From Candidatus Marinacidobacterales bacterium (lineage in GTDB: Bacteria > Acidobacteriota > Vicinamibacteria > Marinacidobacterales > DATDRI01), in the NCBI GenBank assembly GCA_965219415.1, contig CBDCNP010000002.1:1568001-1632000 (forward strand): a stretch of DNA of 64,000 nucleotides, in the 5' to 3' direction. The notes below the pieces were generated by a model. That model worked only from the letters and a program-made list of their open reading frames with translations. It was not told the origin of the DNA and did not search any database. This document shows, piece by piece, positions 60,715 to 64,000 of this stretch. Within the stretch, counting starts at the first letter, position 1; every line of letters starts with the position of its first letter. Position numbers and translations under genes: made by a program.

Positions 60715-61506
60715 TTACACCGAAGAGACAGACGTCTGCTCCAGCATCTTCTTCACTTCATCGAAGAGCAAGCCATTGGTGCTGATGGCGTCGCCACCAT
60801 ATATGCTCGCCTTGCCGTCCCAGTCGGTAAAGGTGCCGCCCGCTTCTTCGAGGATGGGCACCAGGGCAGCACAGTCCCAAGGTTTCATGAGCGGGTCGAG
60901 CATCACCTCGGCTCGCCCGGTCGCGACCAAACAATGGCCATAACAGTCACTCCAACCGCGTTGGAGGCGTGACGCCGCCTTGATACGATCCCAAAAGGCC
61001 CGGGTACGCTCGTCTTCGAGGGTCGCTACTTCGGTATGAGCAACCAATGCCTCTTCGATGCGCGATACGCGAGATACCCTTGCGAGCCGGCCGTTCCACC
61101 GGCACCCCTCGCCCTTGGCGGCGGAGACCGTTTCTTGCAGCCCTGGGAAGTGAGCCACTCCGACGACTACCTCGCCGGCAACCTCGAGCCCTATCAACAC
61201 TCCATAGAGAGGAACCCCTCGGATGAACGACTGGGTGCCGTCGATGGGGTCGATGATCCAGCGATGCGACGAGTCCTTATCCGCCTCACCGAACTCCTCG
61301 CCCAACACAGCGTGATCCGGGAAACGGTGAGCAATGAGCTCTCGGAGCAGCCTCTCCGCCCCCTGATCGGCGGCCGTCACCGGGGACTCATCCTCTTTCC
61401 ATTCAACGTCGACCCCGGTTTGAAAGTGCGCGAGGGTGAACTGACCGGCCTGCCAGGCGGCATCCATGGCGAAATCGAGGAACTCACGATTAGTGATGGG
61501 CGGCAT
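60715..61506 (-). CDS. Inositol monophosphatase family, histidinol-phosphatase HisN-like
   Basis: SPVTAAD, GEE, DPIDGT, WDCAAL. Confidence 0.9.
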   Translation of the reverse strand: MPPITNREFLDFAMDAAWQAGQFTLAHFQTGVDVEWKEDESPVTAADQGAERLLRELIAHRFPDHAVLGEEFGEADKDSSHRWIIDPIDGTQSFIRGVPLYGVLIGLEVAGEVVVGVAHFPGLQETVSAAKGEGCRWNGRLARVSRVSRIEEALVAHTEVATLEDERTRAFWDRIKAASRLQRGWSDCYGHCLVATGRAEVMLDPLMKPWDCAALVPILEEAGGTFTDWDGKASIYGGDAISTNGLLFDEVKKMLEQTSVSSV

Positions 61507-61809
61507 CTATGTTTCTTCGAACAGTTCTCGCCGACCGACTTCGCCCTTCGGGCTTCGTCGAGTCTCGCCGAAGCGACGCATAGGCGGAAGTTTCAGCGCA
61601 CGCGGACACCACAGCATATTCCGGGACGCGCTATTTTCCAAAGGCCTGGTGGAGCCCCCGCCCCCCCTCCAACTGGCACCGCCTGGTTTGGGAGCGCGCT
61701 CTTTGACCCCCTCACCGCGCAGTGTTAAGAATGGCTGGAGCCGGTCTTTCTGAAGCCGGTGTGAGGCTTTTCATAGGCCGGAACAGGCTGGCCTTGTAGA
61801 TTGCGAACG

Positions 61810-62544
61810 ATGGCATCGGAATCCGCCCTCATCTTGTTTACGCTCTCACCCGAAGCGGAGGGCCGCCGGAAGCCGCTCGGCCTAGGAAGGCCTGAGCGTG
61901 CCGCCGATGTGTTCGCGGTCCTTTTCGAGCACCTGGAGAACGTTTGTAGCGGGCTCCACGATGTAGATCTCCTCATCGCCACCCCGAAGCCTTTTAGAGA
62001 TTCGCGGCGGCATTACCTCCCACAAAGGGGCCGGAGCTTCGGAGACTCGCTACGACTGGCGGTCGACGATGCCTTTTCGCTCGGCTACCGACGCGTGGTG
62101 GTCATTGGCAACGATTCTCCGGAGATCTCGCGCCGCTATCTGGAGGACGCGTTCGACGCCCTAGCCTCGTCAGGACCTCGGGCGGCGGTGCTCGGTCCGG
62201 CCAAGGACGGTGGATACGCCTTGCTCGGACTCACGACACCTTGCCCCGAAGCCTTTGCAGCCATGCCCTGGGGGTCGTCGCGTGTTGCGCACCTCACCCA
62301 AGCGCGGCTGGTCGAAAGTCATTTTGTGGTCGAAACACTTCCCGCGCTCGAGGACATCGACGACCGACGCGGGCTAACTCGCTTCCTAACACGCGCACGA
62401 CTCGGATGGCTCGCCCGGCTCGCCCGGCGGATCATAAATCTCCTGCTCCCCGAACCGACCTGCCAAAGAACGACCGAAGGCCACTGGCGGAAGATTTTCC
62501 TTGCCGGGTGGCTCCCCCTCCGCGCTCCGCCTTCCACAACTTAG
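61810..62544 (+). CDS. DUF2064 / TIGR04282-like nucleotidyl- or glycosyltransferase-fold protein with a C-terminal RAPP motif
   Basis: QRGRSFGDSL, VIGNDSP, LGPAKDGGYALLG, MPWGS, EDIDD; ends LRAPPSTT. Confidence 0.85.
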   Translation: MASESALILFTLSPEAEGRRKPLGLGRPERAADVFAVLFEHLENVCSGLHDVDLLIATPKPFRDSRRHYLPQRGRSFGDSLRLAVDDAFSLGYRRVVVIGNDSPEISRRYLEDAFDALASSGPRAAVLGPAKDGGYALLGLTTPCPEAFAAMPWGSSRVAHLTQARLVESHFVVETLPALEDIDDRRGLTRFLTRARLGWLARLARRIINLLLPEPTCQRTTEGHWRKIFLAGWLPLRAPPSTT

Positions 62545-62600
62545 CCTCACGCCAATTTCTCCAATCTCGGATAACGCCCGCCCTGCGCGGGGAGGATTTT

Positions 62601-63812
62601 ATGTCTGGAAAACGAATTGCGATCATCGGTGCGGGTCCCGTCGGCCTCGAAGCCGCCCTTCACGGCCTGTCCCTGGGCCATCGCGTTCAGGTGTACGAAC
62701 GGGGAACCATCGGCGAGAACATGAATCGATGGGGTCATGTGACCCTCTTTTCATCCTGGGAGCTCAACCATTCCGAACTCGGAGCGAAGACCCTTCGGGG
62801 CGCCGGCCGGCCCCTACCCGCACCGGGGGAGTATTTGACGGGAAGGCAGCACGTGGAGAGATATCTCCGGCCCCTGGCCGACACCGACGCGCTGAGAAAG
62901 TGCATTCGAGAGGAAGTCGAAGTGCTGTACGTCGGGAGAGACGGTATCGGCAAGAAAGATTTGATCGGTGGTCCTCGGGAGCGTCATCCCTTTCGCATTC
63001 TGCTCGAGCGGGAACAGGGCGAAGAAATCGCCGAGGCAGACGTCCTGATCGATTGTTCCGGAACCTATGGCAATCACAACTGGATGGGCAACGGTAACAT
63101 CCCGGCTTTGGGCGAACTAGAGCTCGGCGGACAGATCGCCTACACGTTGCAGGACCTCCTCGGCGAGAAACGCGAGCAGTACTCGGGGCGACGCGTGCTT
63201 CTCATCGGCAGCGGACACTCCGCCGCCACGGCGCTCGAGGCACTCACCCAACTACCAGACACATCGGTCACCTGGATAGCCCAAAGCGCCGAGCAGAATC
63301 CCCTGTCTGTTTTCCCCAACGATCCACTTCCGGAAAGAGACCGGCTTTCCAAGAAGGCAAACGAGCTCGCCAGAGGCGGGGCTCCTCGGGTCGCGTACCG
63401 TCCTGCAACTCTCGTCGAGCGTGTGACGCGCCAGGCAGGATCATTTGCCGTCGAGCTCCGCGCGATCGAGACCGATCGCCGAGAGACGGTCACAGTGGAT
63501 CGCATCCTGGCCTATGTGGGCTACCACCCGGACAATCGAATCTATCGGGAGCTCCAGATGCATGAGTGTTATGCGTCGATGGGACCGATGAAGCTTTCGG
63601 CCGCTCTTCTAGGATCGAGCTCGGCAGATTGCCTCGCCAATGAGTCCCACGGGGCCGATGTCTTGACGAACCCGGAACCGAATTTCTTTGTCCTCGGCTC
63701 GAAGAGCTATGGCAAGAACTCGAACTTCTTGATTCGGATCGGGCTCGAGCAAGTTCGAGAGGTCTTCAGCTCCATCGAAAAAACGACCGCCGTGGATCAG
63801 TACGCATCATGA
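62601..63812 (+). CDS. FAD/NAD(P)-dependent oxidoreductase (ArsO-like flavoprotein monooxygenase family)
   Basis: IIGAGPVG, WGHVTLFSSW, DCSGTY, IGSGHSA, HECYAS, LGSKSYG. Confidence 0.88.
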   Translation: MSGKRIAIIGAGPVGLEAALHGLSLGHRVQVYERGTIGENMNRWGHVTLFSSWELNHSELGAKTLRGAGRPLPAPGEYLTGRQHVERYLRPLADTDALRKCIREEVEVLYVGRDGIGKKDLIGGPRERHPFRILLEREQGEEIAEADVLIDCSGTYGNHNWMGNGNIPALGELELGGQIAYTLQDLLGEKREQYSGRRVLLIGSGHSAATALEALTQLPDTSVTWIAQSAEQNPLSVFPNDPLPERDRLSKKANELARGGAPRVAYRPATLVERVTRQAGSFAVELRAIETDRRETVTVDRILAYVGYHPDNRIYRELQMHECYASMGPMKLSAALLGSSSADCLANESHGADVLTNPEPNFFVLGSKSYGKNSNFLIRIGLEQVREVFSSIEKTTAVDQYAS

Positions 63813-64000
63813 CCACCCATACTGCCGAAGCTCCGCCGCGTGTCGCCTTGAGTGCGCTCGACGACCTGTGGTTCCAAGTCTCTGGAACACTCTGCAATCT
63901 CACCTGCGCCCATTGCTTCATCTCTTGCAGTCCAACCAACCACGCGTTCGAGCTCATGGACCTCGAAGCCATGAAGCGCCTCCTCGAGGAATCGAAGGCG
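63809..64000 (+). CDS. Radical SAM protein, N-terminal part; runs off the window
   Basis: ATGA overlap; MTTHTAEAPPRVALSALDDLWFQVSGTLCNLTCAHCFISCSP carries CxxxCxxC. Confidence 0.88.
   Translation, partial: MTTHTAEAPPRVALSALDDLWFQVSGTLCNLTCAHCFISCSPTNHAFELMDLEAMKRLLEESKA

Follow-up and report, generated by a model that had tools for sequence, protein, structure and literature searches.

A 64,000-nt stretch of DNA from Candidatus Marinacidobacterales bacterium, a member of the class Vicinamibacteria in Acidobacteriota (contig CBDCNP010000002.1, positions 1,568,001 to 1,632,000 of the forward strand), referred to as a whole as the window, encodes a protein of the DUF2064 family that carries the residues Arg-Ala-Pro-Pro (RAPP) shortly before its stop codon. 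This motif is conserved throughout one clade of the family, and our favoured explanation, to which we give a probability of roughly 60%, is that the tail of these proteins would be an arrest module of the RAPP type that is joined to an enzyme and influences its own operon in cis. The feature that would set it apart from known RAPP peptides is its carrier, apparently a complete and catalytic enzyme fold that is cytosolic and has no localisation signal. Stalling of the ribosome at the motif, the regulation of this stall and its control over downstream expression are what we infer by analogy to those peptides; the loci of relatives that were compared with the window come from other genomes and from public metagenome contigs, and no claim depends on the two unpublished genomes G007 and G192. 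The original prediction for this DNA had described the enzyme as a nascent-chain sensor whose stalled ribosome would expose the Shine-Dalgarno (SD) sequence of the next gene by covering an anti-SD. One half of that interpretation, a conserved C-terminal motif of the arrest type on a protein with an enzyme fold, is retained here, and the other half, transduction through the anti-SD, is given up because the pairing is a minor conformer and did not withstand a synonymous control.

The open reading frame (ORF) in question lies on the + strand, starts at TTG 61801 or ATG 61810, stops with TAG at 62544 and encodes a 247-aa protein when counted from 61801; ATG 61810 is the likely start because homologues begin at MASESAL. 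The C-terminus reads GWLPLRAPPSTT-stop (at greater length, ...FLAGWLPLRAPPSTT-TAG and ...RKIFLAGWLPLRAPPSTT-TAG), and the RAPP codons are found where they had originally been reported, at 62521-62532, which leaves three residues between the motif and the stop. No other R[AG]PP was found in any stop-to-stop frame of more than 82 aa in the window. The protein matches PF09837 (DUF2064) with 92.1 bits against a Pfam gathering cutoff of 25.8, and its score on TIGR04282 (arsenosugar biosynthesis glycosyltransferase, a hypothetical equivalog) is 114 bits, under the NCBIfam cutoff of 134. The gene is composed of the following parts:

61810-62544, + strand: DUF2064/TIGR04282-like nucleotidyltransferase-fold gene, starting at ATG 61810 with an in-frame TTG at 61801, based on Pfam, the starts of homologues and an AlphaFold2 model
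62413-62445, + strand: codons of the last confident domain helix, residues 205-215 (WLARLARRIIN...), modelled by AlphaFold2 as helix 205-215, with block predicted local distance difference test (pLDDT) values of 96 and 88
62446-62520, + strand: codons of the linker, residues 216-240, variable in sequence, kept in length and predicted to be disordered (pLDDT 51-65)
62521-62532, + strand: RAPP codons CGC GCT CCG CCT (Arg 62521-23, Ala 62524-26, Pro 62527-29, Pro 62530-32)
62533-62544, + strand: codons of STT, a variable stretch that is 1-8 residues long in homologues, and the TAG stop

Searching 5.8 billion proteins yielded 146 matches, and from the best 120 of these, 47 were aligned with the window protein, at 44-82% identity (P0002-P0047 and P0050; two short fragments, P0048 and P0049, and P0051-P0120, which score lower, are excluded from the alignment). 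Exactly one R[AG]PP is present in each of the 48 aligned sequences, as RAPP in 44 and RGPP in four, between 1 and 8 residues before the stop. Residues R241, P243 and P244 are invariant, and residue 242 is Ala or Gly in all 48. An invariant Arg combined with an exchange limited to Ala and Gly matches the arrest-competent set defined by mutagenesis of ApdA and ApdP, where the Arg is described as irreplaceable, the change of Ala to Gly as fully permissive or enhancing, and other exchanges as at best partial (PMC12992588). Conservation falls sharply on either side of the motif, with a top-residue fraction of 0.98 for the motif, 0.31 for residues 216-236 and 0.21 after the motif, compared with 0.70 in the domain. 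The distance is kept all the same: L207 and R241 are separated by 34 aa in 40 of the 48 proteins, by 33 in six, and by 35 and 44 in one each. Conservation of RAPP at a fixed distance from the domain, on which the original prediction had been made to depend, is thus borne out among the aligned homologues and, as described below, clade-wide.

At the nucleotide level, all four motif codons vary synonymously over 24 loci (Arg: CGC 17, AGA 3, CGT 2, CGG 2; Ala: GCT 14, GCC 3, GCA 2, GCG 2; Gly: GGT, GGG or GGA; Pro: CCG, CCT or CCC), and selection therefore acts on the peptide, not on an RNA or DNA element. The first 11 loci had suggested that Ala is invariably encoded by GCT, a view that was ruled out when 13 further loci showed GCA, GCG and GCC.

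The age of the tail was apparent from the family tree. A profile search of 1.84 billion representatives clustered at 50% identity identified 18,118 family members at E values up to 0.001, and among the best 150 of these, 54 carry R[AG]PP no more than 12 residues from the end (21 RAPP, 33 RGPP), 23 carry a second motif termed Q-type here, and 73 carry neither. In the 54 R[AG]PP representatives, D187 and the P-site Pro are 47-64 aa apart and the motif ends 1-12 residues before the stop. A FastTree phylogeny was calculated for 143 of the 150 sequences from the columns of the domain alone, to keep the tail from influencing the topology. A single clade of 82 tips (support 0.994) holds all 52 R[AG]PP tips and all 23 Q-type tips of this tree; its seven unmarked tips are three fragments, one RPPP, one RPPG and two sequences without a motif. 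Neither motif occurs in any of the 61 tips outside the clade, and the canonical DUF2064 paralogue encoded in the same genome as the window protein (C3:192904-193617) likewise lacks such a tail. This confinement means that the tail is an old and retained feature of one branch of the family, a branch with members at least in Acidobacteriota and in the phylum to which a Chitinophagales genome belongs (Bacteroidota).

The Q-type motif, (W/F)QK[ASP]PP or WQ[IL]PPP, was observed in 23 representatives among P0131-P0255, 2-12 residues before the stop. Its 23 tips form one group nested inside the R[AG]PP clade (23 of 23, support 0.788), and in 22 of the 23 it lies at the same distance from the domain as R[AG]PP (53-62 aa). 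In locus L239 (QKAPP; about 1494-2319, - strand) a TonB-dependent receptor gene lies downstream and a radical SAM gene upstream. Nothing relevant was found in the literature on QKAPP or WQKPPP motifs, and the Q-type may be a second, undescribed stalling motif that has replaced R[AG]PP in this sub-clade.

Further occurrences of the motif were seen outside the window. A crude ORF set of the same genome contains three frames with RAPP close to the C-terminus (G000:C3:406556-407005, C3:4840162-4840866 and C1:263136-264035, all on the - strand), and among such ends are ...RKPVRAPPSTC-stop and ...APRAPPA-stop. Each of these frames may encode a further arrest peptide or be spurious. Moreover, a genome of the same family shows two adjacent short matches to the window protein at G003:C2:1055563-1055921 (query residues 2-63 and 55-116, 68-69% identity), and this pair looks like a broken copy of a tailed DUF2064 gene.

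Structure prediction with AlphaFold2, using the 48-sequence alignment, gave a model with a mean pLDDT of 90.8 that is confident up to residue ~215. A globular domain was predicted over residues 8-215, its last helices being 189-199 and 205-215, and the ~32 residues that follow (216-247) have pLDDT values of 51-65 and are predicted to form a disordered tail, so that no docking of the motif on the fold is predicted. The extension of roughly 55 aa after EDIDD that had been proposed for this protein is accordingly shorter: residues 216-247 are indeed of low confidence, but residues 188-215 are modelled with confidence as two helices that belong to the domain. Between the last helix and Pro243, the putative P-site residue, there are ~28 residues, roughly the length of nascent chain that the ribosomal exit tunnel holds. 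The nearest solved fold is that of the DUF2064 protein 3CGX (Foldseek E 4.4e-18, TM-score 0.74-0.79), followed by guanylyltransferases of the CofC/FbiD type. The catalytic-type residues of the DUF2064 domain are conserved among the aligned homologues, and the protein is probably a working enzyme. Neither a signal peptide nor a transmembrane segment was seen at the N-terminus, which opens with the first beta-strand of the fold, as judged from the AlphaFold2 model and the alignment and not from a dedicated signal-peptide predictor.

Taken as an arrest module, the tail could operate as follows. Translation would halt with the codon of Pro243 (62527-29) occupying the P site and that of Pro244 (62530-32) the A site, where formation of the peptide bond would be blocked; this assignment of the two sites is made by analogy to ApdA, ApdP and CruR (PMC12992588, PMC10951233). 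In this arrested state, the exit tunnel would be filled by the ~28 variable and disordered residues 216-243, with the entire enzyme domain, down to its last helix, located at the tunnel exit. The fixed length of the linker suggests that the state of the just-emerged domain, whether its folding or the binding of a ligand or partner, would set the length of the pause. The pause would then act in cis on the genes downstream, which in the window encode a flavoprotein, a radical SAM protein, a metallophosphoesterase and an ArsM-like methyltransferase, and in other lineages a TonB-dependent receptor, a porin or ArsM. On a more tentative and rather doubtful view, the enzyme itself may be the monitoring part of an arrest peptide across this deep monophyletic branch, its folding or ligand binding serving to tune genes for uptake (TonB-dependent receptor, porin) or metabolic genes of an organo-arsenic type.

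Consistent with an action in cis, a close co-directional gene follows the DUF2064 gene at every locus that could be read. Of the 25 R[AG]PP loci for which DNA was available, 23 include enough downstream sequence, and all 23 have such a gene. It encodes the flavoprotein at 16 loci, a flavoprotein remnant followed by ArsM at one (G005), ArsM at one, a TonB-dependent receptor at three, a phosphate-selective porin (porin O/P) with a solute-binding protein at one, and an unknown secreted protein at the last. The receptors have the architecture CarboxypepD_reg-Plug-OMP_b-brl_4 and belong to L234, L222 and L237, two of them from Acidobacteriota and one from the phylum of the Chitinophagales genome (Bacteroidota). 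The gap between the stop and the next gene measures 44-164 nt in the 17 loci of the flavoprotein type, and 65-116 nt in five other Acidobacteriota loci. At the RAPP locus L237 it is 187 nt, and at L239, a QKAPP locus outside the 23, it is 104 nt. Among related genomes, 10 of 11 have an orthologue of the flavoprotein gene 3' of the DUF2064 gene. The original prediction had named the flavoprotein and radical SAM genes as the target, an assignment that does not extend to the family, given the ArsM, TonB-dependent receptor and porin genes of other lineages.

In the window, the DUF2064 gene appears to be the first of its operon. The nearest long ORF upstream of it, 60715-61506, is on the - strand, and the surrounding features are:

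61703-61732, + strand: promoter-like site TTGACC-18-AAGAAT, 5' of the DUF2064 gene; one found compared with 0.3 expected in shuffles, a consensus match only
62601-63812, + strand: FAD/NAD(P)-binding oxidoreductase (flavoprotein) gene, 403 aa, with matches to Pyr_redox_3 and Pyr_redox_2 and a GxGxxG right after the ATG
63809-64000, + strand: start of the radical SAM gene, whose ATGA overlaps the flavoprotein stop, with CxxxCxxC visible; the gene runs off the window

Beyond the flavoprotein gene, the operon continues with the radical SAM, metallophosphoesterase and ArsM-like methyltransferase genes and with a PHO4 fragment next to an IS3 transposase. The full radical SAM protein (301 aa, read in L031) matches PF04055; its best NCBIfam match is the Rv1681 family with 104 bits against a cutoff of 380, and as a partner of the ArsS type (TIGR04167) it scores 55.9 bits against a cutoff of 300. 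The methyltransferase reaches 328.8 bits on the arsinothricin ArsM model, which is below the cutoff. Past the end of the window (L031 5904-8075; G000:C3, about 1634900-1637075) lie the 186-aa PHO4 (phosphate transporter) fragment, a flavodoxin-like gene and, on the opposite strand, the transposase of the IS3 family, so that an insertion sequence may have disrupted the operon at its 3' end. At L034 (G005:C4:468000-480000) and L123, where the tail reads ...RAPPYTCLN, the flavoprotein gene is reduced to a remnant of ~45 codons and RAPP is kept; the ArsM-like gene of L034 was split over three tblastn pieces, which points to frameshifts or errors in the assembly. Finally, the flavoprotein frame is open as far upstream as 62241 in the window, which adds 360 nt 5' of the ATG and an overlap with the 3' end of the DUF2064 gene. 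A fusion by read-through or frameshift was ruled out: in relatives the frame is open for only 0-40 nt upstream, and the long open frame in the window is therefore a product of chance in GC-rich DNA.

How a stall would be conveyed to the next gene had been given a specific form in the original prediction, in which the Leu-Arg-Ala codons at 62518-25 pair with 62585-92 and thereby mask the SD of the flavoprotein gene, until a ribosome stalled at RAPP covers this anti-SD and turns on the flavoprotein and radical SAM genes. The elements concerned are:

62518-62525, + strand: 5' arm of the proposed helix, CTCCGCGC, read from the sequence, with pair probabilities of 0.014-0.098
62545-62600, + strand: intergenic region of 56 nt, C-rich and G-poor, read from the sequence
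62577-62591, + strand: local hairpin CCCGC-CCUGC-GCGGG, present in the minimum free energy (MFE) structure, its 3' arm overlapping the first G's of the SD
62585-62595, + strand: 3' arm of the proposed helix, GCGCGGGG (62585-92), overlapping the SD GGGAGG (62590-95), read from the sequence

The complementarity itself is real, amounting to 8 bp with one G-U between CTCCGCGC and GCGCGGGG. The duplex between the 28-nt stalled-ribosome window and the SD window was calculated at -19.9 kcal/mol and is matched by only 7 of 220 other windows of the gene; the three closest relatives are similar, with 12 of 223, 8 of 223 and 15 of 222 windows as good, and in L034 and L128 no other window of the gene pairs with the SD as well as the RAPP window (0 of 215 and 0 of 123). 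Furthermore, when the footprint of a stalled ribosome was simulated by forcing its 28 nt to be unpaired, the cost of opening the SD fell most with the footprint centred on the RAPP site in L122, L034, L040, L046 and L128.

Despite these points we consider this mechanism unlikely. Folding of 62500-62610, a check that had been proposed together with it, gave -27.0 kcal/mol compared with an average of -31.0 for shuffled sequences (z +1.18; 176 of 200 shuffles at least as stable). The proposed helix is absent from the MFE structure of this segment, its pair probability is 0.014-0.098, and the best structure that contains it lies 1.8-3.7 kcal/mol above the MFE in three context sizes, which rules it out as the dominant structure. 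The SD bases are instead 79-87% paired with local intergenic partners, namely in the CCCGC/GCGGG hairpin and with the CCUC directly after the stop, and masking of the footprint lowers the cost of opening the SD in the window by only 1.3-1.8 of 14.0 kcal/mol. The within-gene rank, at the top 3-7% in the clade of the window, was mostly removed by a synonymous control, for which the same peptide was recoded 1000 times at each of 22 loci: 13.4% of the recodings match or beat the duplex observed in the window, since any encoding of L-R-A-P-P is C-rich, the Ala and Pro-Pro codons being so regardless. RNA-level selection for pairing between the RAPP codons and the SD is thereby set aside as an explanation. 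The only clear exception among the 22 loci is L128 (0.000), whose duplex of -27 kcal/mol was reached by 0 of 1000 recodings, with L033 (0.045) and L125 (0.049) being marginal. Anti-SD pairing is thus weak in the window and is not conserved in the tailed DUF2064 family, and the RNA route from a stall to the downstream start is not the proposed helix. The intrinsic anti-SD character of RAPP codons may nonetheless be used in some lineages.

A GC-rich hairpin 0-6 nt 5' of the flavoprotein SD was recognized by eye in the printed MFE structures of 15 of 17 loci, at 62577-62591 in the window and at equivalent positions in L032-L046, L122, L125 and L128. Its stem differs by lineage (CCCGC/GCGGG, UCCGC/GCGGA, CUCUCCG/CGGAGAG or CCGGA/UCCGG). 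As a conserved local hairpin that occludes the SD it was ruled out, because pairing of the SD does not exceed that in shuffles. Neither a terminator-like site nor a match to an Rfam family was found in the intergenic region of the window (62545-62600), the only Rfam match being a below-threshold snoRNA model (E 0.099) at 61948-61981 on the - strand. The spacer between the DUF2064 and flavoprotein genes of L036 (G014:C2:977000-989000), unusually long at 164 nt, folds strongly, with an MFE of -64.1 kcal/mol for 179 nt, and includes a stem followed by seven U that has the look of a terminator.

Several observations weigh against an arrest module that acts on its operon. First, no conserved RNA switch was found between the stall site and the downstream start: masking of the ribosome footprint yields 3.0-11.5 kcal/mol in five of 14 loci, and a gain of zero or less in eight, a result that counts equally against the mechanism originally proposed; occlusion of the SD by the intergenic region does not go beyond mononucleotide shuffles in 16 of 17 loci (fractions 0.04-0.96; in the window, 32% of shuffles are as low); and in the other phylum the spacers of L237 (187 nt) and L239 (104 nt), read by eye, show no SD-like sequence before the start. 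Second, the downstream genes are varied and RAPP is kept beside a flavoprotein remnant (L034, L123), and the motif is therefore tied to the enzyme, not to any one target. Third, no known release mechanism applies, because translocation or insertion is what releases most described RAPP peptides, which are small and either secreted or in the membrane, and the DUF2064 protein has no signal for either. Fourth, one of the points in its favour, the avoidance of the motif in the genome of the window, where the crude ORF set contains 25 RAPP against 57.2 expected (0.44) and 12 RGPP against 49.9 (0.24), with 71 AAPP against 62.7 (1.13), is only indicative, as this set is noisy, includes many spurious frames and missed the DUF2064 gene itself.

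In an alternative reading the stall is real and serves the enzyme, by allowing time for folding or for binding of a cofactor or partner or by positioning the ribosome and mRNA before release, and it does not regulate the downstream genes. The motif follows the enzyme clade and no single downstream gene, it persists where the flavoprotein gene has decayed (L034 and L123), the linker maintains a distance of ~28 residues between the last helix and the P site, and a conserved RNA switch was not found. Against it, a close co-directional gene is present in 23 of 23 loci, and the motif is always within 12 residues of the stop, a position that a pause for folding would not need; moreover, the characterised RAPP peptides described in PMC12992588 all regulate a downstream gene. 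On balance an exclusively enzyme-serving pause seems improbable to us.

Still less probable is a purely protein-level role, in which R[AG]PP would be a docking site, a degron or a part of the active enzyme and stalling would be absent or incidental. A short invariant C-terminal motif on a flexible tail does resemble a linear interaction motif, and with its conserved catalytic-type residues the protein is probably a working enzyme. Against this, the only exchange tolerated is that of Ala to Gly, which is the arrest-competent set and unlike what would be expected of a generic ligand (PMC12992588), and AlphaFold2 does not dock the tail on the fold; R[AG]PP is also among the motifs most avoided in proteomes because of stalling, and any function at the protein level would still have to live with the arrest. 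That RAPP arose by chance in an Arg/Ala/Pro-rich protein of a 59% GC genome, where composition alone predicts ~57 RAPP per genome-sized ORF set, is refuted by its conservation in all 48 homologues and across an entire clade of the tree and by the synonymous turnover of its codons.

If the tail of the DUF2064 protein stalls, the consequences would go beyond this operon. The known RAPP arrest peptides are small sensors of secretion, membrane insertion or metals; here a folded cytosolic enzyme domain would be wired to the same arrest device, and folding of the enzyme or binding of its substrate could possibly be read out co-translationally to control the operon. It would, if true, be the first bacterial arrest peptide that is embedded in an enzyme, cytosolic and gated by ligand or folding. 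The clade offers well over 100 natural variants (the 48 aligned homologues and the representatives of the wider clade) with a fixed linker length, which makes the proposal readily testable, and it would provide a first regulatory handle on the poorly understood clusters of DUF2064, radical SAM and ArsM-like genes. It also indicates that surveys limited to small ORFs annotated as 'hypothetical' can miss arrest modules attached to annotated domains. The selection of ORFs in the RAPP survey kept only genes annotated as unknown, hypothetical or uncharacterised (PMC12992588), and the main text of that paper names neither DUF2064 nor a glycosyltransferase, an oxidoreductase or a radical SAM protein, although its supplementary lists may hold such proteins. 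Our literature search on DUF2064 found no paper, the matches listed for TIGR04282 and related names were unrelated, and a search for RGPP translation arrest together with the term cytosolic found only PMC12992588.

Compared with the systems described so far, the tail fits a design in which a RAPP 'arrest module' is preceded by an N-terminal 'regulator module' that varies, and in which as little as RxPP can be enough (PMC10951233). RAPP and RGPP are reported to be among the most depleted tetrapeptides in bacterial proteomes, to cluster near the C-termini of proteins of less than 300 aa that are mostly secreted or membrane-bound, and to precede diverse genes, TonB-dependent receptors being an enriched class (PMC12992588). 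With ApdA and ApdP the DUF2064 proteins share an R-A-P-P core near the stop, an invariant Arg, an exchange restricted to Ala and Gly, a variable region N-terminal to the motif and a co-directional next gene. ApdA and ApdP are, however, small proteins with a signal sequence that are relieved by the secretion machinery and are encoded upstream of genes of the secDF or yidC type, whereas in the window the motif forms the tail of a ~245-aa cytosolic protein with a nucleotidyltransferase fold, followed by metabolic (flavoprotein, radical SAM, ArsM-like) or, in relatives, uptake genes. Beyond the four residues of the motif there is no homology between them.

A closer parallel in gene context is provided by CruR of Bordetella pertussis and the RAPP/RGPP proteins of Streptomyces lividans, C-terminal cases of less than 300 aa that are described as preceding genes outside protein localisation, TonB-dependent receptors included; all seven S. 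lividans proteins tested, and CruR, stalled in a motif-dependent manner, the P and A sites being occupied by the two Pro codons (PMC12992588). A TonB-dependent receptor gene is likewise next at L234, L222 and L237 (R[AG]PP) and at L239 (QKAPP), and S. lividans SLIV_32905 is described as another protein without a localisation signal (PMC12992588). In contrast to the DUF2064 proteins, the members of this class are described there as sensors without an enzymatic fold, with a signal peptide or transmembrane segments and, for two of them, predicted metal-binding Cys/His residues.

In SecM-secA, too, a full-length protein has an arrest motif at its C-terminus, RAGP, that belongs to the same structural class, and the next gene is controlled by a stall at a few codons' distance from the stop. 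SecM is about 170 aa long, its only known function is monitoring, and a defined stem-loop hides the secA SD, whereas an equivalent conserved stem-loop was not found at the tailed DUF2064 loci. Within its own family, the window protein shares the fold of canonical DUF2064/TIGR04282 members such as 3CGX, with genes of an arsenic-related type nearby, but it scores under the TIGR04282 cutoff and belongs to a separate clade, the members of which are distinguished by a disordered tail of ~32 residues ending in R[AG]PP.

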